Shown here: positions 6,273-41,208 of the stretch, one piece after another
Numbering within the stretch: the first letter of the stretch is position 1
Layout: each line of letters starts with the position of its first letter
Virus genome (UHGV): UHGV-0041851
Reading direction: 5' to 3' (one strand)
Length of the DNA: 41,208 bases
Origin: a virus
The notes under the pieces: model-generated
Databases searched by the model: none
Seen by the model: only the letters and a program-made list of their open reading frames with translations
What the model was told of the DNA's origin: nothing
Program-made: the position numbers and the translations under genes

Positions 6273-7387
6273 GAACGTCATTAGTCACCCGTGAAGAGAT
6301 GATCGAGGCAATTGAACAGCACACTGCCTGTATCAGTACCAGGGATATACCAGGCGTTATTGCCAATTACTTCATGATCACCAAACAACTTTACCGGAGA
6401 AAGGACAAGAACGCGGTTCACCGTATCCTGTTGTCTGATATCCGCGAATACCTGCTCGAACAGGGTCATCTGAATTACGCAACCGCCGCAGCCGAAGCAC
6501 GCAAGGAGGCACACAGAATGAAAGCAACTAACGTTAAATCAGAAAAAATTCATGCACCTTCAGTTCAAGAATCGGAGCTGGTGGTTGTTCAGAATCAGTC
6601 TGATGAAATTCCCGTTCTGGAATGGCAGGGAGTGCGTGTAGTGACAACCGAGACTCTTGCTAGAGGGTATGGGACAGAAACAATCCGTATTCGCCAAAAT
6701 CATCATGAGAACAAAGTACGCTTTGTTGAAGGGAAGCACTTTTTCAAAGTTGAAGGAGAATCATTGCGCGAGTTGAAGCACAGAGTAGCTTTAAACTACT
6801 CTGTAAAAATTGCTCGCAATGTTCGCTCACTCACCCTCTGGACAGAACGCGGCGCAGCCCGCCACGCTAAAATGCTCGAAACCGATCAGGCATGGGCATT
6901 CTTTGAAAAACTGGAAGACAGCTACTTCCGACAAAAAGAACAGCAACCGATCGCAATCCCCCAGACGCTTCCTGAAGCCCTACGCCTGGCTGCCGAACTG
7001 GCTGAACAAAAGCAACTTCTGGAACAGAAAGCCCACCAGCTAAATCAGCAGCTGGTGGCCGCCGCTCCTAAAGTCGATTTTGCCGACCGGGTATCAGTAG
7101 CTAAAGGGATCCTGATTGGGAATTTTGCAAAGGTTGTTGGACTTAAACAAAACGCGCTGTTTGTCTGGTTACGGGAGAACGGCATCCTGATAGCGTCCGG
7201 TGGACGTAAAAATGTGCCGTTCCAGCAGTACATCAACGCGGGGTATTTCACGGTGAAAGAAGTGGTGCTGGATGATGAAGATGGCTACCAGATACGGTTG
7301 ACGCCTCAATTAACGGGTAAAGGCCAGCAGTGGTTGACGCGTAAACTGCTCGATGCTGGCTTGTTAAAACCGGTGGCGGCTGAATAA
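6269..7387 (+). CDS. ant1: Antirepressor Ant1 (ORF6N-like central domain, KilA-C-like C-terminus); nested Ant2 from in-frame ATG at 6518
   Basis: 372 aa (about 42 kDa); in-frame ATG at codon 84 has a strong AAGGAGG Shine-Dalgarno and gives 289 aa (about 32 kDa), matching the reported 42/32-kDa Ant1/Ant2 pair; domain call is from motif recognition only. Confidence 0.7.
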   Translation: MRTSLVTREEMIEAIEQHTACISTRDIPGVIANYFMITKQLYRRKDKNAVHRILLSDIREYLLEQGHLNYATAAAEARKEAHRMKATNVKSEKIHAPSVQESELVVVQNQSDEIPVLEWQGVRVVTTETLARGYGTETIRIRQNHHENKVRFVEGKHFFKVEGESLRELKHRVALNYSVKIARNVRSLTLWTERGAARHAKMLETDQAWAFFEKLEDSYFRQKEQQPIAIPQTLPEALRLAAELAEQKQLLEQKAHQLNQQLVAAAPKVDFADRVSVAKGILIGNFAKVVGLKQNALFVWLRENGILIASGGRKNVPFQQYINAGYFTVKEVVLDDEDGYQIRLTPQLTGKGQQWLTRKLLDAGLLKPVAAE

Positions 7388-8972: not shown

Positions 8973-9006
8973 ATAACTTCGTATAGCATACATTATACGA
9001 AGTTAT
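8973..9006 (+). other. loxP site-specific recombination site
   Basis: Exact 34-bp ATAACTTCGTATA-GCATACAT-TATACGAAGTTAT. Confidence 0.98.
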
Positions 9007-11057: not shown

Positions 11058-11618
11058 ATGAAAACAATCGAACAAAAAATTGAACAGTGCCGCAAGTGGC
11101 AGAAGGCAGCCAGAGAACGAGCGATCGCTCGGCAACGGGAGAAGTTGGCTGATCCGGTCTGGCGAGAATCTCAATATCAGAAAATGCGGGATACTATCGA
11201 CCGCCGTATCGCTAAACAGAAAGAGCGCCCACCAGCCAGCAAAACGCGGAAAAGCGCGGTAAAAATAAAATCTCGTGGCTTGAAGGGGAGAACACCAACG
11301 GCGGAGGAACGGCGCATCGCCAATGCTCTTGGCACTCTCCCCTGCATTGCCTGCTATATGCATGGAGTAATATCTAATGAGGTGTCTCTGCACCATATCG
11401 CCGGTCGTACCGCGCCGGGTTGTCATAAAAAGCAATTGCCACTTTGTAGATGGCACCACCAGCATGCAGCACCGGCTGAAGTAAGAGCAAAATACCCCTG
11501 GCTGGTCCCTGTTCATGCCGATGGTGTGGTTGGAGGCAAGAAAGAATTCACCCTGCTGAACAAGTCAGAGATGGAGTTACTGGCTGACGCCTATGAGATG
11601 GCAAACATCATGCACTAA
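11058..11618 (+). CDS. ref: Ref, recombination enhancement function (HNH-type endonuclease)
   Basis: 186 aa; HNH-like Cys/His cluster CIACYMHG...HHIAGR...CHKKQLPLCRWHH; position after cra. Confidence 0.85.
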   Translation: MKTIEQKIEQCRKWQKAARERAIARQREKLADPVWRESQYQKMRDTIDRRIAKQKERPPASKTRKSAVKIKSRGLKGRTPTAEERRIANALGTLPCIACYMHGVISNEVSLHHIAGRTAPGCHKKQLPLCRWHHQHAAPAEVRAKYPWLVPVHADGVVGGKKEFTLLNKSEMELLADAYEMANIMH

Positions 11619-15438: not shown

Positions 15439-17394
15439 TTAGTTCCTCACCACCAAATCTAACTCAATAGATTTTTTATTAGCATAACTTTTTAGTGCTT
15501 CATTGAGTTCCATTTGCTTTGCGCTTTCAAAGTTGCTGCCATAAAACACGACTTTGTTTGGAGCAAAGTCTTTGTCTGAATCCACCTTTTGAAGTAACGC
15601 TTTCAATGCTTCGCTAGTAAAATTAGGTGCAATCAAATACAGACGACCATCGCACAAATGTGCTTTGTAGCCACCAAGATCAACATCTTCAATAGGTGTT
15701 GTTAGCAAACTGCCATCATACAGGCACCATGTAGTTAATAGAGTGTCATATTGTTCAGGCGTCAAGACAACATCATCAAAGAATGTATGATTAGACAGTG
15801 TAAGTTCTGATTCGTCTTTAGCGCGAAAATCTGGCATTAGTTGATATACCTTAAACCCCTGATCCCTATTTTTTTTAGACGCCCTAATTAAACGCTCCTT
15901 TGTTAAGTCAAATATTGTATTATAGCCATGCTTCATGGCATCAGATTTATCTTTTGTAGGTTCATCTAGTTGAACTGTAATAAACTGATACGACGTTTTA
16001 TTTTTGTTATTCAAATTAAAAACTGTATGCGCTGTAGTTCCTGACCCAGCAAAAAAATCCAAAACAATACCCTCTCCATCACATGCAAAAGATATTAAAT
16101 CTTCTACTAATTTTATAGTTTTAGCATTTGTGAATGGTTGAGTCATTTCTGGGAACAGCTCTTTAAGTTCGTTCGTTGCAACACGCCCATCAAGATGGAT
16201 AACGGAGCTTAATTTCTGTTTGTAATCCTTAGCATAAACTTTTAGTTCTATAATTTTGTTTTCATCATCACCGAAGATGATCTTTTCTTCAGACAGAAGC
16301 CTATCCATTGTATCTAATGGAAAACGATATCCCATAAGAGGTTGTTTGCATGGCTTCTTAGTTTTTGGATGTATAATATCATATCTGTAACCCTCTTTTC
16401 CGGGGTTGTGGACGCTCTGACTACCAGTATAGATGCCGTCTTTGTCTATATATTTGTATCGGTCAAGAGGCCATAATTCAGATCTGTGTTCACGAAACCA
16501 CTGGGTATATTTTTCCTGAAGTTCATTGCCAGTGTATTTTGATGCAAATTCTTCACCTATGTTGACAAGTAAGTTTTTTACATCGGAGATATTAGATTTC
16601 CACTCACTTATAAGCTGCTCTTTGTTTTTTGTGTAAACAATAATATATTCATGCTCTACAGCGATATTTGAAGGGTTGTTATCAGTTGCATTTTTCCATA
16701 CTAGATCCCCAACATGGTTTTGCTCACCAAAGATCTCGTCGCAAACTAGTTTTAATTGACTGAACTCATTATGGTCAATAGAAATAAAAATAGTCCCGTC
16801 TTCTCTCATTAATTCACGAGCAATATAAAGGCGTGGGTAAATGAATGTCAGCCATGCACTATGACTGCTTGACCCCTTGGTGGTAAATTCTAATATGCGT
16901 TTAGCCTCATCGAGGTCGATGCCTGCTAGTTCAGAAAGCTGCTCAGGTGTAAATTTGCGATCATCATTATAAACGAACCCATCCTTACCTGTATTGTATG
17001 GTGGGTCAATGTAAATCATCTTCACCTTTTCAGCGTAAGCATTAACCATATGCTTCAATACTTCGAGATTATCCCCTTTGATTAACAGGTGTTGACTGTT
17101 CTTGTTCTCTTCTTGTTGGTTATGAGTTTTATCTTCTGCCAACAACGTTTTCGGTGGTAGATTGGCCAACAAACGGGCATAAGATTTACCCAGCCAGTTC
17201 AAGCTGTATGATTCTTTAGAGAGTTCAACTTCCGATGCCCTAATAATCTCAAGCAATTTTTCTTGAATGAAGGCTCCGTTTTTATCAAAACACTGAGGGA
17301 AATTAGCTTTCAACACAGCCAGTTGCTTGCTGTTAGCCGTTTCTACTTCGGAAAAAATCGTTTCTTTTTTCATATCCATTTTAAACCAGATCAT
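15439..17394 (-). CDS. mod: Type III N6-adenine DNA methyltransferase Mod subunit
   Basis: 651-aa track ORF; motif IV DPPYN (YIDPPYNTG) and motif I FFAGSGTT; true start probably an internal Met (MDMKKETIF or MKKETIF), giving 646 or 644 aa. Confidence 0.9.
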   Translation of the reverse strand: MIWFKMDMKKETIFSEVETANSKQLAVLKANFPQCFDKNGAFIQEKLLEIIRASEVELSKESYSLNWLGKSYARLLANLPPKTLLAEDKTHNQQEENKNSQHLLIKGDNLEVLKHMVNAYAEKVKMIYIDPPYNTGKDGFVYNDDRKFTPEQLSELAGIDLDEAKRILEFTTKGSSSHSAWLTFIYPRLYIARELMREDGTIFISIDHNEFSQLKLVCDEIFGEQNHVGDLVWKNATDNNPSNIAVEHEYIIVYTKNKEQLISEWKSNISDVKNLLVNIGEEFASKYTGNELQEKYTQWFREHRSELWPLDRYKYIDKDGIYTGSQSVHNPGKEGYRYDIIHPKTKKPCKQPLMGYRFPLDTMDRLLSEEKIIFGDDENKIIELKVYAKDYKQKLSSVIHLDGRVATNELKELFPEMTQPFTNAKTIKLVEDLISFACDGEGIVLDFFAGSGTTAHTVFNLNNKNKTSYQFITVQLDEPTKDKSDAMKHGYNTIFDLTKERLIRASKKNRDQGFKVYQLMPDFRAKDESELTLSNHTFFDDVVLTPEQYDTLLTTWCLYDGSLLTTPIEDVDLGGYKAHLCDGRLYLIAPNFTSEALKALLQKVDSDKDFAPNKVVFYGSNFESAKQMELNEALKSYANKKSIELDLVVRN

Positions 17395-28782: not shown

Positions 28783-28804
28783 CTACGTTTCAAAGATATA
28801 AATT

Positions 28805-28821
28805 ATTGCTCTAATTAATTT
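28805..28821 (+). promoter_or_regulatory. C1 operator-like site upstream of ssb
   Basis: ATTGCTCTAATTAATTT, 16/17 to consensus, ending 20 bp before the ssb start. Confidence 0.55.
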
Positions 28822-28840
28822 ATTTTGTTGGATAAGAAAA

Positions 28841-29329
28841 GTGGCACAACGCGGTGTAAACAAAGTCATCCTGATTGGTACCCTGGGACAAGACCCAGAT
28901 ATCAGGTATATACCAAATGGCGGAGCAGTCGGAAGACTCAGCATCGCAACGAATGAATCATGGCGCGACAAGCAAACAGGCAAACAGAAAGAGCAAACAG
29001 AATGGCATAAAGTCATTTTGTTCGGAAAAATTGCTGAAATTGCGAGTGAATATTTACGAAAAGGTTCTCAGGTCTACATCGAAGGGAAACTTAAAACCCG
29101 TAAGTGGACAGATGACGCCGGTGTAGAACGTTACACGACGGAAATTATCGTCAGCCAGGGCGGCACCATGCAAATGATCGGCGCTCGCCGCGACGATTCA
29201 CAATTCTCAAATGGCTGGGGGCAGTCAAACCAACCTCAAAACCACCAGCAATACAGCGGTGGCGGTAAACCTCAGAGCAACGCCAATAGCGAACTTCCAA
29301 TGGACTTTGAAGACGATATTCCATTTTGA
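28841..29329 (+). CDS. ssb: Single-stranded DNA-binding protein
   Basis: 162 aa; OB-fold N-terminal region, Gly/Gln-rich linker and canonical acidic C-terminal tail DFEDDIPF. Confidence 0.95.
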
Positions 29330-29381
29330 GAGGGCTGAAAGTTGCTCGATTACTTAAAAATAACTTTACCTAATTGGTGTA

Positions 29382-29407
29382 AAAAAATGGGCGCAACAAA
29401 GCGCCCC
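29382..29407 (-). terminator. Terminator-like hairpin with T-run on the minus strand
   Basis: GGGCGC-AACAAA-GCGCCC flanked by a 7-nt A-run on plus (T-run on minus). Confidence 0.4.
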
Positions 29408-29462
29408 AACAATAGAGTTTCAAATTAATAAAAAGGTAATAAATAACATGAAGTTAAATTGA

Positions 29463-29510
29463 GAAGAGGCAATTTTATTGCCTCTTCAAAGGTGGCATGA
29501 GGGTGCCACC
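29463..29510 (-). terminator. Tandem hairpins downstream of the porin gene
   Basis: GAAGAGGCAA-TTTTA-TTGCCTCTTC and GGTGGCA-TGAGGG-TGCCACC about 50 bp past the porin stop. Confidence 0.5.
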
Positions 29511-29562
29511 TATATGCGGGCAGTGACATCACTCCCTTCCCGCATATTCTTACCTACCAAAA

Positions 29563-30675
29563 TTAGAATTGGTAGGTCATACCAACAGCAACGATGTTGT
29601 CGGTTGCAACGCCAGATTTTTTGGTAAAATCACTTTCATCGATCAGGTTGATCTTATAGTCAACGAAAGTGGACATATTCTTGTTAAAGTAATAAGTCGC
29701 GCCCACGTCGATGTATTCAACCAGATCCTGGTTACCGAACGCACCAATATTTTCACCGCGAGAGTGTAGGTAAGCGATGGACGGACGCAGGCCGAAATCA
29801 AACTGGTATTGAGCAACGGCTTCAAAGTTTTTCGCCTTGTTCGCGATATGGTCATCACCGAAGACTGTCATATTCTGAGTTTCAGAATAAGTTGTAGCCA
29901 GGTAAATGTTGTTTGCATCATATTTCAGGCCCGTAGCCCATACTTCAGCAGTTTTACCAGAGGCATTCAGAGGGCTGGCTTTAGCATAGGATACCTGTCC
30001 ATCAGTACGGTCAGATTTTGCATAGGTTGCAGCAACGCCAAATCCTTCATAATCGTAAGTAGCTGACAGACCAAAGCCATCACCATTAGATTCAACTTCG
30101 TCGCGGCCTTTCCAGTTGTTCACTTTTGCAGCACTATCATTTTTACCTTGATACTGCAAAGCAAAGTTCAGACCATCAACCAAGCCGAAGAAATTATTGT
30201 TACGATAGGTCGCGACGCCAGTAGCACGCTGGGTCATAAATACATCAGTCTGAGTCCAGGTATCTCCACCAAACTCCGGCAGCACGTCAGTCCAAGCGCC
30301 AACATCATAAGCTACACCGTAGTTGCGACCATAGTCGAGCGAACCATAATCGCCAAAGCGAAGCCCTGCAAACGCAAGACGAGTTTTATCTTTATCAGAA
30401 CCTTCAGTTTCAGAACGGTTACCTTTAAATTCGTACTCCCACTGACCAAAACCGGTTAACTGGTCATTAATCTGAGTTTCACCTTTGAAGCCCATACGAG
30501 CATAAGTTTTATCCCCGTCATCACTAGCCGAAGAAGAGAAGTAATGCTCTGCATTAACTTTGCCGTACAGATCCAGTTTGTTACCGTCTTTGTTATAGAT
30601 TTCTGCCGCTTGTGCAGACATTGCCATCAGAACAGATGCTGCAACCGTAGAAAGTGCCACTGTAATTTTTTTCAT
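29563..30675 (-). CDS. General outer-membrane porin, NmpC/Lc/PhoE-like (OmpC/OmpF family)
   Basis: 370 aa; signal peptide [39 protein letters not shown]; porin hallmarks and C-terminal ...[12 protein letters not shown]; closest by memory to prophage-encoded NmpC/Lc. Confidence 0.9.
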
Positions 30676-30961
30676 TTTTTTTCCTTTAGATTGAACTTTT
30701 CAACAGAAAAGAAGTCACTTAGGGAAGATGTTTATCTTTTTTTGATTTACATTTCAAGTTTTTTAAATAAATATCGAGATATTTTCGTGATCAGGATCAC
30801 AAAAAACACCATTGCAAACCAATTAATTATTAGGATGGTATTAATAATATAGAGTAAAAAATAACACTAAGACCAAATCGCAACCAGAAACAACAGCGCA
30901 GTATAAAACACGGGTAGTGCATCCAATTAGTAGAACATGTGTTTTTCGATAAACGCTCCGA

Positions 30962-31314
30962 TCACTTTTTCGTGGATCTCAACTGAGCGTGAGAAGCAGA
31001 TTGTTTTTTACGAGCCAACTGCTTAATGCGGGTGCGTAGCGTCAGATTATTACGCTCAATGCGTTGGGTGAATATTTTGCCGGTCAGATGCTTATTCTTC
31101 GCCCCCCCCCGGCCATAGCTGCCCCAGTCATCGCTGGTGAGCATGCCGATATTGAAGGGTATAAGCAGTGCCAGTAGCTCCCGGCACGTTTGATCGGTTC
31201 GGGGACCAAAAGTGTAGGCCAGTACACCGCCTGTTTTGGTGTTGTACGCGTACCAGAGCCAGTGTTGCCGGCAACGTAGCTCCATTGCTCATCAAGCTCG
31301 CAGATAAGCGCCAC
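30962..31314 (-). pseudogene. insB: insB-like transposase frame, split across two reading frames
   Basis: N-terminal InsB-like segment (..ICELDEQWSYV..) and C-terminal segment (..WLWYAYNTKTGGVLAYTFGPRTD..GKIFTQRIERNNLTLRTRIK..) lie in different frames; a C8/G8 homopolymer at 31098-31105 lies within the frame. Confidence 0.55.
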
Positions 31315-31340
31315 ATCAGCGTGGGCAACAGGCGAAGAAG

Positions 31341-31610
31341 TTATTCGCGTTGGCGCGAGTTTTTTAAAGTCCGGATGACGGTGTTAATACCAATTTTCAG
31401 TGTTTTGGCGGTATCGCGAACCCCGGCACCATTAAAGGCCATTTCAGTGATCAGCTCTTTCATACCCGGCTTACGTGCTTGATAAGTATAAGTGAGCTGA
31501 AACACACGGTGGCAGTCACGGCAGCGAAATCTGTCACGGCCTTTAGGGTTTTGACCATGGCGGTAAACCCGAGCTAACTGACAACGGGGACAATGAATAT
31601 TAACGCTGGT
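31341..31610 (-). pseudogene. insA: insA-like frame lacking a canonical start codon
   Basis: Translation ..IHCPRCQ..RFRCRDCHRVF..GVRDTAKTLKIGINTVIRTLKNSRQRE resembles the IS1 InsA zinc-finger/HTH protein, but no in-frame ATG/GTG/TTG precedes the zinc finger. Confidence 0.4.
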
Positions 31611-31770
31611 TATGAGATAACCTCAAAAGCCCGTATTATACATCAGATTCAACTAATTAGAGGCATCACCAGAAATGGCTTGCTTCCATAGTCTAAAGCA
31701 AGCCACAACACATTTACCTTAAGTACACAATTAACATACCAGAACAGGTTATTTTAACACTATCAGGGAG

Positions 31771-38710: not shown

Positions 38711-38784
38711 AAGTTCCCTCCTACGTTGTCAGGAGGTAATGGTATGCAAAGTAACTTCTCAACCGGTTATGTTGCATAAGAGAC

Positions 38785-39048
38785 TTACCTATTCAACCGA
38801 CTTTTGGAACCTTCAATAATAAGCCTGCTATTGGCGCTGAAAATAAGAACCATGCAGCTCTGAAGGCTTTCATTCATGTCCTTATATTCCGCGAGATACA
38901 TGCCAATAAAGCCAGCAAGTACGGCGGAAATACATTCGGCCAGCAATTTCTTGCATGAAGACTCGTAACGGTTTTCACATAGCCCACTCAAATACGAATA
39001 CACCCCACCAAGAAGGGATAACATCACGATATGTACATAAAATGTCAT
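38785..39048 (-). CDS. Small membrane protein (holin-like), first gene of the lyd/dar transcription unit
   Basis: 87-aa ORF with two hydrophobic segments, upstream of lydA. Confidence 0.4.
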   Translation of the reverse strand: MTFYVHIVMLSLLGGVYSYLSGLCENRYESSCKKLLAECISAVLAGFIGMYLAEYKDMNESLQSCMVLIFSANSRLIIEGSKSRLNR

Positions 39049-39175
39049 TTTTTACCTATACAACAGTAAGTTGAACAACATTTGAGAACGGTATGCACTT
39101 TGTGATTTCCACACACACTGGTTTTGTTAATTAAAACCTGTAGCTTGCAATAAATAACGATAGTGGGCAGAAAAT

Positions 39176-39361
39176 ATGCTAATAGGCTATGTACGCATAT
39201 AGACAAATGAACAAAACACAGCTATGCAGTGAAAAGCACTTGAAAGCGCAGGATGTGAGCTAATTTTTGCGAATAAGGCGAGCAGCAAAAAAGCTGGGCA
39301 CCCTGGGTTAAAAAAGGTTCTGCGTATGCTTTCCAGAGGTGATACCCTAGTCTCGGACTAG
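39176..39361 (+). pseudogene. Decayed N-terminal fragment of a second serine DNA invertase gene
   Basis: Translation MLIGYVRI*TNEQNTAMQ*KALESAGCELIFANKASSKKAGHPGLKKVLRMLSRGDTLVSD* parallels the N-terminus of the intact invertase (IGYIRVSTNDQNTDLQRNALNCAGCELIFEDK..PGLKKLLRTLSEGDTLV) but has two in-frame stops and is truncated. Confidence 0.7.
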
Positions 39362-39363
39362 GG
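39345..39363. repeat. Perfect 19-bp palindrome at the truncation point of the invertase pseudogene
   Basis: CCCTAGTC-TCG-GACTAGGG, 8-bp arms with a 3-bp spacer. Confidence 0.8.
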
Positions 39364-39483
39364 ACAACATTTCGAGAACAGTTTTCATTAGCGGTCAGCA
39401 GGCGCTAGATACATCGAATTGATGTGCCGCGCGATAAATGTACCTATTCTATCAAGATAAATTACACCGACGCGGCATTAGAA

Positions 39484-40056
39484 TTACAGCTCAGATTGAG
39501 TTTGGCGCTTCTCTACAGGATGATAACGATAAATCGTCGATACACCGATATCGTAAATAATTGCCAACTGTTTCCTGCTGTAGCCATTTTCGATCAACCT
39601 CGCTATTTGCTCATGTTGTTCTTTTGTCAACTTCGGGCGACGTCCGCCAATGCGTCCCTGTTCGCGTGCAGCTGCCAGTCCGGCCAGTGTTCTCTCAACA
39701 ATTAATTCACGTTCCATTTCTGCTAAAGCACCCATGACATGAAAAAAGAAACGCCCCATGGGTGTTGATGTGTCAATACTGTCTGTCAGACTACGGAAAT
39801 TAACACCTTTTTCCCGCAACTCCTCTATAAGCGTGATAAGGTGTTTCATACTTCTGCCAAGCCTATCCAGCTTCCAGACAACCAGCGTATCTCCTTCTGA
39901 TAACGTTCTGAGCAGCTTTTTCAAGCCTGGTCTGGCTGACTTTGTTCCGCTTATTTTATCTTCAAAAATCAGTTCACATCCTGCGCAGTTCAGTGCATTT
40001 CTTTGTAAATCTGTGTTTTGGTCATTTGTTGACACACGAATGTAGCCAATTTGCAT
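39484..40056 (-). CDS. cin: Serine DNA invertase (Cin/Gin/Hin/Min family)
   Basis: 190 aa from the ATG at 40056 (AGAGG Shine-Dalgarno); catalytic N-terminus IGYIRVSTNDQ, VWKLDRLGRS and C-terminal HTH; adjacent to the tail-fibre cassettes. Confidence 0.85.
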   Translation of the reverse strand: MQIGYIRVSTNDQNTDLQRNALNCAGCELIFEDKISGTKSARPGLKKLLRTLSEGDTLVVWKLDRLGRSMKHLITLIEELREKGVNFRSLTDSIDTSTPMGRFFFHVMGALAEMERELIVERTLAGLAAAREQGRIGGRRPKLTKEQHEQIARLIENGYSRKQLAIIYDIGVSTIYRYHPVEKRQTQSEL

Positions 40057-40116
40057 GAAAAACAACCTCTTTGTTTAGTTAAAAATACATCGTTGGTATA
40101 GGTAGGGATTAAGACT

Positions 40117-40312
40117 AAAACGTTGGTTTGGGGGAAGGCTCAGCATTGCCTGTTGGCGTACCTGTTCCGTGGCCCTCAGCCACTCCGCCAACGGGGTGGC
40201 TGAAATGTAACGGAGCAGCATTTTCTTCTGAAAAGTACCCAAATCTGGCAAAGGCTTACCCTACTAATAAATTGCCGGATTTACGCGGTGAATTTATTCG
40301 TGGCTGGGATGA
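40117..40312 (+). repeat. Conserved 5' block of tail-fibre cassette 1 (candidate crossover region)
   Basis: Near-identical to 40589-40792, including a 67-bp perfect identity (40188-40254 = 40660-40726) encoding TGWLKCNGAAFSSEKYPNLAK; begins with AAAACGTTGGTTT directly after a stop codon. Confidence 0.7.
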
Positions 40313-40589
40313 CGGACGTGGTGTGGATGCCGGGCGACAATTATTATCTTCACAGGGGGATGCAATAAGAAATATTGAGGGGTTCGCAGATGGCGGGATC
40401 GGCATGTCTTTTGATGCAATCAGAGGGGCTTTTTACGATGCAGGAACACGATCAGCGAGAATGCCGAATAACACAACTACTATAGACAAAACCGATGACC
40501 TTGGATTCGACGCCTCTCGTGTCGTGCCAACAGCTAATGAAAACCGTCCTCGTAATATTGCCTTTAATTATATCGTAAGGGCGGCATAA
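40128..40589 (+). CDS. Tail-fibre C-terminal tip cassette 1 (promoterless module)
   Basis: Frame is open from 40119; encodes PVPWPSATPPTGWLKCNGAAFSSEKYPNLAK..., resembling C-termini of lambda Stf / Mu-P1 S-type fibres, and ends with the conserved NIAFNYIVRAA. Confidence 0.7.
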   Translation: MGEGSALPVGVPVPWPSATPPTGWLKCNGAAFSSEKYPNLAKAYPTNKLPDLRGEFIRGWDDGRGVDAGRQLLSSQGDAIRNIEGFADGGIGMSFDAIRGAFYDAGTRSARMPNNTTTIDKTDDLGFDASRVVPTANENRPRNIAFNYIVRAA

Positions 40590-40792
40590 AAACGTTGGTT
40601 TAGGGGAAGGCTCGGCGCTGCCCGTTGGTGTGCCTGTTCCGTGGCCCTCCGCCACACCACCAACGGGGTGGCTGAAATGTAACGGAGCAGCATTTTCTTC
40701 TGAAAAGTACCCAAATCTGGCAAAGGTTTACCCAACGTTAAAATTACCTGATTTACGCGGTGAGTTTATCCGTGGTTGGGATGATTCGAGAG
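40589..40792 (+). repeat. Conserved 5' block of tail-fibre cassette 2
   Basis: Direct repeat of 40117-40312. Confidence 0.7.
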
Positions 40793-41103
40793 GGATTGAT
40801 ACAGGGCGTTCATTGCTAAGTGGTCAGACTGCAACATTTATTCGTACAGCTTTGCAGGATTATTACGGTGTCGATCTGACTACTAATGTCAAAGTAGGTA
40901 TCGCTTATGCTACTGCTGATTCTGTTATAACTGTTGGAAACCCTGCTAATCCTAAAGCAGGAGATAATAGCGATTATGTTCCAGCATCATCAGATAACTC
41001 CATAACAGGCACTCAAAGGACGGCAGAGGATAATTTTACCGGGGCATGGATATCAATGCGCCCCCGCAACGTTGCTTTTAATTACATTGTAAGGGCCACA
41101 TAA
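40630..41103 (+). CDS. Tail-fibre C-terminal tip cassette 2 (promoterless module)
   Basis: Frame is open from 40591; same conserved N-terminal block and C-terminal NVAFNYIVRAT, with a divergent middle region. Confidence 0.7.
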   Translation: MPVPWPSATPPTGWLKCNGAAFSSEKYPNLAKVYPTLKLPDLRGEFIRGWDDSRGIDTGRSLLSGQTATFIRTALQDYYGVDLTTNVKVGIAYATADSVITVGNPANPKAGDNSDYVPASSDNSITGTQRTAEDNFTGAWISMRPRNVAFNYIVRAT

Positions 41104-41153
41104 AAACGTTCCTTAAAAAGCTACGTGCCCAACCGTTGATGCTGTATAAATAA

Positions 41154-41208
41154 GGGTCTTCCCCGATCATGGTGGGAAGGCTCAGAACTCCATATTCAGC
41201 TTACCGTA
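41154..41208. repeat. Terminal inverted repeat, right copy
   Basis: Exact reverse complement of nt 1-55; contains GGGAAGGCTCAG, which also occurs at the start of cassette 1 (GGGAAGGCTCGG in cassette 2). Confidence 0.9.

Follow-up and report, generated by a model that had tools for sequence, protein, structure and literature searches.

What occupies the interval between ssb and the dar operon in the virus genome UHGV-0041851, how did it come to lie there, and what could it do to a host cell? In the stretch of 41,208 nucleotides analysed here (the window), this interval contains a general porin gene of the nmpC type and, upstream of it, an insertion sequence (IS) of the IS1 family, which a preliminary description made from the sequence alone had taken for an IS-associated variable hotspot with a captured gene. 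We favour a different explanation, to which we give a probability of about 80%: the interval is the P7-type filling of a known slot of P1-like phage-plasmids, made up of a porin moron whose transcript ends in a 3' untranslated region (3'UTR) resembling the small RNA IpeX. The porin and its IS are an ordinary finding; the added value lies in the 3'UTR.

The porin gene and its slot

By megablast, phage P7 (AF503408/NC_050152) was found to have a gene annotated “nmpC, NmpC precursor” at this place, flanked by ssb and odaA. Collinearity with P7 extends over the whole window, with 92-98% identity and with P7 position 1, at loxP, falling at window position 8990. The match to P1 spans 28802-29329 and halts at the ssb stop codon, where the match to P7 runs on; homology to P1 resumes at 31672, and the backbone homology to P1 and P7 taken together resumes at 31672-31674. 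In P1, the slot is filled by isaA-IS1-isaB and not, as the preliminary description had it, by isaA-IS5-isaB. The interval between ssb and hxr has been named RD-2 (P1 21,540-24,243; Venturini et al., PMC6906374) and, in another study, variable region 2 (Zhao et al., PMC9603915); a “P7 nmpC interrupted by IS10” has been described in pSvP1 (Venturini et al., PMC6906374). We conclude that 29330-31671 is the P7-type filling of this known variable slot in P1-like phage-plasmids, and we regard the identity of the porin and its assignment to the slot as practically beyond doubt.

The porin is also widespread. In PLSDB, its region is found in 113 records compared with 483 records containing the adjacent hxr-ddrB backbone, i.e. 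in about one-quarter. The variable hotspot of the preliminary description is real and already published. The porin is not a new capture, given that reference P7 has nmpC at the same place and some 113 PLSDB plasmids carry it; the annotation of P7 already includes the gene, and the arrangement is known, with a dead IS added.

The description of the gene itself, as a general porin of the NmpC/Lc phage type with an intact signal peptide directly after ssb, was borne out. The open reading frame (ORF) of 370 amino acids is undisrupted, ends in ...TYQF with the terminal Phe, and starts with a signal peptide of 23 amino acids that ends in AQA, followed by AE (mature start AEIYNK); the alignment with solved mature porins begins at residue 24, and a 69-nt signal peptide is annotated in both the P7 and the PA-2 porin genes. 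The protein matches Pfam Porin_1 over the full model (1-337 of 337; 493.7 bits, E-value 4e-148) and the NCBIfam model “porin OmpC” (NF007841) with 532 bits at a cutoff of 484, and scores under the cutoffs of the NCBIfam PhoE and OmpF equivalogs. PDB structures of OmpK37/OmpC match it with E-values of 1e-134 to 1e-136, and the porin would form a trimeric 16-strand outer-membrane channel. Its amino acid identity amounts to 96.5% with P7 NmpC, 79% with PA-2 Lc and 79-82% with lambdoid porins, and to 73% or less with chromosomal porins of other genera. Judged by these comparisons, the porin belongs to the phage NmpC/Lc clade and not to chromosomal OmpC, OmpF or PhoE.

The gene might nonetheless be a silent passenger, like nmpC in Escherichia coli K-12, which is interrupted by IS5. 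Interruptions by IS10/ISVsa5 are likewise found in some P1-like plasmids, and in the window the promoter region has diverged and an IS lies upstream. We consider this improbable, because the ORF is intact from signal peptide to terminal Phe, most of the 113 plasmids likewise have an intact gene, and the ratio of nonsynonymous to synonymous divergence (dN/dS) is 0.12-0.26 against other P1-like alleles; against lambdoid alleles it is 0.05. Conservation of the CRP site and the -35-like hexamer also speaks against silence. By the alignments, the porin is an intact orthologue of P7 NmpC under purifying selection.

The putative promoter comprises a near-consensus CRP site, TGTGATCCTGATCACG, that corresponds in the alignment to the annotated CRP site of PA-2 lc and is kept, together with the TTGAAA hexamer, in P7. 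The 158 bp next to the start codon (30676-30833) are about 80% identical to P7 (locus L001, 4878-5037), compared with 93-97% for the coding sequence, which suggests that the porin promoter is a distinct regulatory allele or that a recombination breakpoint lies near the start codon. Divergence to the same degree holds against almost all other P1-like plasmids. The stretch from the IS edge to the porin ATG is AT-rich and measures 237 bp, one less than the 238 bp given in the preliminary description. Since 111 bp separate the IS edge from the CRP site downstream of it, the core promoter has probably been left intact.

As to the IS itself, its family stood up to analysis: besides terminal inverted repeats, it has matches to Pfam InsA Zn-ribbon, HTH_Tnp_IS1 and DDE_Tnp_IS1, NCBIfam also returns the IS1 family, and the A6C frameshift motif can be recognised when the element is aligned with a relative. 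Compared with an intact relative of 766 bp, the window copy has an insA start codon changed from ATG to ATA, has lost 10 bp of insB' and has gained 2 bp by insertion. The insA-insB' frames are thereby broken, i.e. the element is not autonomous, and RefSeq splits the copy in TOK-001 into fragments. Identical lesions are present in the same-site copies of pECTOK-001_2 and of the ATCC 98082 plasmid, so that the insertion must be old and inherited. The IS is common to only six PLSDB records and is found in only two complete RefSeq E. coli genomes, and nearly all porin-bearing P1-like PLSDB plasmids are without it.

The proximity of the two had suggested an IS1-associated hotspot in which the porin is new cargo that the IS picked up or brought in, and it is true that an IS1-family element lies beside the porin, that the P1 slot holds an IS1 as well and that the slot is variable. 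This reading is largely refuted and in our estimate very improbable. P7 and about 100 plasmids have the same porin at the same place without the IS, and lambdoid phages carry the same cassette without it. Furthermore, the element is decayed and present as a single copy on one side of the porin, and an 8-9-bp target duplication was looked for around it and not found (flanks TAAAACACG and AGAAATGGC). Nor is it related at the DNA level to the IS1 of P1: blastn found no similarity between the two, and their InsA proteins are 43% identical. Finally, the upstream DNA is collinear with P7 up to the IS edge, and beyond it about 400 bp of P7 spacer are gone; this points to an insertion followed by adjacent deletion or recombination rather than to delivery of the porin. 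The IS is thus a later insertion in one sub-lineage and now inactive, and we hold with high confidence that it is secondary and dead.

In pECTOK-001_2 (L005/L007) and the ATCC 98082 plasmid (L006), the block of porin, IS1-like element and hxr has gained further insertions: an IS5 immediately after the porin gene, in or beside its 3' region (position approximate), and, separating the porin from the IS1-like element, either a classical IS1A or an IS3-family element. These plasmids are large and multi-replicon, and the block is not part of an intact P1-like genome in them.

The 3'UTR of the porin gene

The porin gene and ssb are convergent and separated by a spacer of 233 nt, which is strongly structured. 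The minimum free energy (MFE) is -75.2 kcal/mol (z -6.05) for 29330-29565 and -66.9 kcal/mol (z -6.0) for 29381-29565. Four strong hairpins are predicted, of which only the last fits a canonical intrinsic terminator. The tandem terminators that had been assigned to the porin are accordingly reduced to this last one, the four hairpins being better read as an IpeX-type 3'UTR RNA.

Scanning Rfam at permissive thresholds yielded no family that reached its threshold in the 3' region. One sub-threshold match, to GcvB, covered the full model (29381-29567, minus strand; 30.5 bits compared with a gathering score of 42; E-value 4.5e-5 in a 401-nt search) and prompted the comparison with the regions after DLP12 nmpC and PA-2 lc. 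The 3'UTR aligns with both from the stop codon to the terminator. Identity to the K-12/DLP12 RNA is 63% (78% ungapped), the window RNA having an extra 18 nt, and the interval from stop codon to terminator measures 185 nt in the window and 165 nt in K-12. When folded separately, the window and the DLP12/PA-2 RNAs adopt the same layout of four hairpins; nine base pairs show compensatory changes between the window and the lambdoid 3'UTRs, and the single-stranded motif TGTTATWTATTACC is common to all of them.

IpeX has been reported as an RNA of 167 nt that is made as part of the porin transcript and represses OmpC and OmpF in trans. In work by Castillo-Keller and colleagues from 2006, ipeX is said to lie between the nmpC/lc stop codon and its terminator. 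Our placement of IpeX directly 3' of nmpC/lc follows in part this account, and further secondary sources and the agreement between 165 and 167 nt in length. The 3'UTR of the window is very probably an IpeX homologue. As such it would be an unannotated P7-type variant of IpeX with a MicF-like seed, new here and modestly novel; literature searches for a link of ipeX or nmpC to P1 or P7 returned nothing.

The GcvB match raises the question of whether the 3' region might instead be a GcvB-like small RNA or a GcvB mimic. Its extent over the full model and its E-value would favour such a relationship, to which we nevertheless give hardly any credence: the score is under the gathering score, the R1 region of GcvB is missing from the alignment, the homologous K-12 IpeX locus has no GcvB match, and the resemblance consists mostly of hairpins and terminator. 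GcvB membership was rejected on the first two of these grounds. The match is probably a structural resemblance, but the GcvB-aligned stretch UUAACUUCAUGU is similar to the R2 region of GcvB. Searched against Rfam, the K-12 IpeX locus gave no match to any family, GcvB included, which implies that Rfam is without an IpeX model. The Rfam MicF model scored 16.1 bits on the 3'UTR at a gathering score of 79.

To return to the IpeX-like RNA, it is conserved beyond its surroundings. In a comparison of P7 with 15 P1-like loci from IMG/VR, the 236 nt that follow the stop codon differ by zero to one substitutions (99.5-100% identity), whereas the coding sequences of the same loci are 93-97% identical, with a synonymous divergence (dS) of 0.07-0.24, and ssb shows up to 7 differences per 100 nt. 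The single-stranded stretch, and not the stems alone, is invariant among the P1-like loci. By this measure of sequence identity, no other stretch of the porin module is as conserved as the 3'UTR. The RNA occurs solely beside phage-type porins: an nhmmer search with the RNA profile against 80 porin loci of other species matched only the phage-type loci of E. coli and Escherichia albertii, for which reason a wider covariation set is not available. In one IMG/VR locus (L180, IMGVR_UViG_2534681604_000014; 6813-6964), about 150 bp are present between ssb and the IpeX-like terminator that are extra compared with the window.

Predicted pairing with ompF and ompC

For the pairing analysis, the single-stranded region was compared with windows around translation starts, using dinucleotide shuffles and 50 background start regions. 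Folding of full-length RNA duplexes had returned whole-molecule duplexes only, which are uninformative, and was replaced by these single-stranded-region windows. The single-stranded stretch contains the 12-nt motif UUAUUUAUUACC, which is shared with MicF (Table 1).

With ompF (-14 to +8), a core duplex of 22 bp with one bulge is predicted at -23.4 kcal/mol, and at -26.1 kcal/mol for a natural C variant; the MicF control behaves alike, with a predicted ompF duplex of -27.4 kcal/mol. The whole single-stranded stretch reaches -31.0 kcal/mol with ompF, a value attained by none of 500 shuffles; against the 50 background start regions it has a z of -5.1 and ranks first of 51. The ompC start region, with a perfect match of 11 nt over the start codon, also ranks first of 51, and the porin's own mRNA ranks 45th of 51, i.e. 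no pairing is predicted. The K-12 IpeX prefers the ompC Shine-Dalgarno region (z -4.3), and there, too, the own porin mRNA is not a predicted target. From these models, we think the odds lie slightly in favour of the 3'UTR RNA repressing OmpF/OmpC in vivo.

The obvious alternative is that the four hairpins serve only to terminate transcription or to stabilise the mRNA of ssb and the porin gene, which are convergent, and have no role in trans. Convergent genes need insulation, the last hairpin is a canonical terminator, all Rfam families stay below threshold and the seed is partly paired in the predicted fold. We judge this rather unlikely, given the homology to the IpeX locus as a reported trans repressor of OmpC and OmpF, the invariance of the single-stranded stretch besides that of the stems, the identity to the MicF seed over 12 nt and the top ranks of ompF and ompC in the pairing analysis.

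Several points nevertheless weigh against a trans-acting, IpeX-like RNA expressed with the porin. In the predicted MFE fold, GGUAAG, close to where the 3'UTR begins, is base-paired with UUACCU, a part of the seed, so that processing may be needed to free it. The target background is small, consisting of the 50 start regions and the shuffles. The original IpeX paper reportedly found no simple complementarity to ompC. There are few independent covariation events, because the comparison covers essentially two clades plus E. albertii, and the perfect conservation of the 3'UTR could stem from a recent recombination sweep instead of selection. Lastly, the promoter region is only about 80% identical to that of P7, and the IS may alter regulation.

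Proposed role, locus layout and related systems

We read the core of the locus as a self-contained moron of about 1.4 kb, which lambdoid phages also carry, between Q and their lysis genes. It comprises a promoter with a CRP site, an NmpC/Lc-type porin with signal peptide and, up to an intrinsic terminator, a structured 3'UTR. Transcription of the porin mRNA in lysogens would be under the control of cyclic AMP (cAMP)-CRP, and the 3'UTR of this mRNA would act as an IpeX-like small RNA that pairs through the MicF-like seed with the translation start region of ompF, and more weakly with that of ompC, sparing its own mRNA. Host porins would thus be replaced by the phage porin, with changes in phage and colicin receptors and in outer-membrane permeability. 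That about one-quarter of P1-like phage-plasmids carry such a complete “porin-swap” cassette, with an invariant 3'UTR that has acquired the MicF-identical seed and with one transcript that supplies the phage porin and silences host OmpF (and OmpC), has in our view about an even chance of being correct.

P1-like phage-plasmids are common carriers of resistance genes in E. coli, and OmpF and OmpC are the main entry routes of beta-lactams as well as receptors for many phages and colicins. Because OmpF and OmpC serve both functions, a reprogramming of porins would matter for beta-lactam entry and for phage and colicin reception alike. If the proposal is true, susceptibility to phages and colicins and antibiotic permeability would be altered in clinical and livestock E. 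coli carriers; should the 3'UTR function in the manner of IpeX or MicF, the major porins of the host would be reprogrammed post-transcriptionally by P1-like phage-plasmids, and the RNA would represent a second seed variant, with an independent evolutionary origin, of a phage 3'UTR small RNA.

The features of the locus are collected in Table 1. At its right edge, the hairpin after hxr coincides with a “terminator” annotated under the P1 match AJ000741.

Table 1. Features of the ssb-hxr interval and its flanks in UHGV-0041851 (window coordinates)
Feature	Position	Strand	Remarks
ssb	28841..29329	+	Left backbone flank; Pfam SSB match; P1 homology ends at the ssb stop codon
IpeX-like 3'UTR RNA (probable)	29381..29565	-	185 nt, porin stop codon to terminator U-run; homologous to the DLP12/PA-2 region 3' of nmpC/lc
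3'UTR hairpin 1	29512-29547	-	
3'UTR hairpin 2	29490-29511	-	
3'UTR hairpin 3	29463-29487	-	
3'UTR single-stranded stretch	~29408-29462	-	
12-nt motif UUAUUUAUUACC	29435..29446	-	Equals MicF nt 17-28; perfect complement of ompF -11..+1
3'UTR terminator hairpin and U-run	29389-29406 and 29381-29388	-	
nmpC-type general porin	29563..30675	-	370-amino-acid ORF; signal peptide coded by 30607-30675
-35-like hexamer TTGAAA	30752-30757	-	Conserved
CRP-like site TGTGATCCTGATCACG	30786..30801	-	-111..-126 from ATG; kept in P7
Diverged upstream spacer	30834..30912	-	Collinear with the P7 nmpC upstream region; ~60-65% identity by eye
Decayed IS1-family element	30913..31670	-	758 bp; Pfam matches and terminal inverted repeats
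Imperfect inverted repeats of the IS	30913-30935 and 31648-31670		23 nt
insB' remnants	30962-31285	-	
insA remnant	31341-31613	-	
Terminator hairpin 3' of hxr/odaA	31676..31705	-	End of the dar operon; perfect 10-bp inverted repeat
hxr/odaA	31771..32079	-	Right backbone flank

Elsewhere in the window, some regions depart from P7. At 11594-11596, P7 positions 2616 and 7569 are joined directly, so that the Tn3 (bla) interrupting the ref gene of P7 is missing from the window. Within the mod gene of a type III restriction-modification system, about 1 kb (15807-16813) has no megablast match to P7, and the flanking res-mod region is only 92% identical; the segment is probably a different target-recognition domain. 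Collinearity with P7 breaks at 38779-41208, where a LydA-family holin-like ORF (38785-39048, minus strand) and a serine invertase (39484-40065, minus strand) are followed by tail-fibre tip cassettes. At least two, possibly three, of these cassettes stand in tandem, with Collar domains (40128-40589 and 40630-41103), and 220-nt heads that are 85% identical; at 41174, a third repeat begins. In its layout the region resembles an invertible host-range region with several cassettes and differs from the C segment of P7.

Among the closest known systems is P7 nmpC. Its place, between ssb and odaA/hxr, and its orientation are those of the window porin, with 96.5% identity of the protein, 100% of the 3' region and 96-98% of the flanking backbone. 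The window porin differs from it by 12 amino acid changes and one indel, and the decayed IS1-family element stands in the window in place of about 400 bp of P7 spacer. The isaA-IS1-isaB segment of P1 (RD-2) occupies the same slot, with the ssb stop codon as left and the terminator after hxr as right edge, but its content is wholly different, and its IS is a classical IS1 whereas that of the window is a distant family member.

The PA-2 lc-ipeX and DLP12 nmpC-ipeX modules share with the window the order of CRP site, porin, structured 3'UTR and terminator, as well as the four hairpins and the conserved single-stranded motif; their RNAs, too, are predicted to pair with ompC/ompF and to spare their own porin. 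They are located in the Q-lysis region of lambdoid phages, in contrast to the phage-plasmid slot of the window. Compared with the K-12-type IpeX, the seed appears shifted: the P7 type would favour ompF through the 12-mer identical to MicF, the K-12 type the ompC Shine-Dalgarno region. With MicF, finally, the window RNA has these 12 nt in common and a predicted duplex of similar energy over the same ompF region from Shine-Dalgarno sequence to start codon. It is not a homologue of MicF, however; it is the 3'UTR of a porin mRNA, whereas MicF is a divergently transcribed, stand-alone gene.

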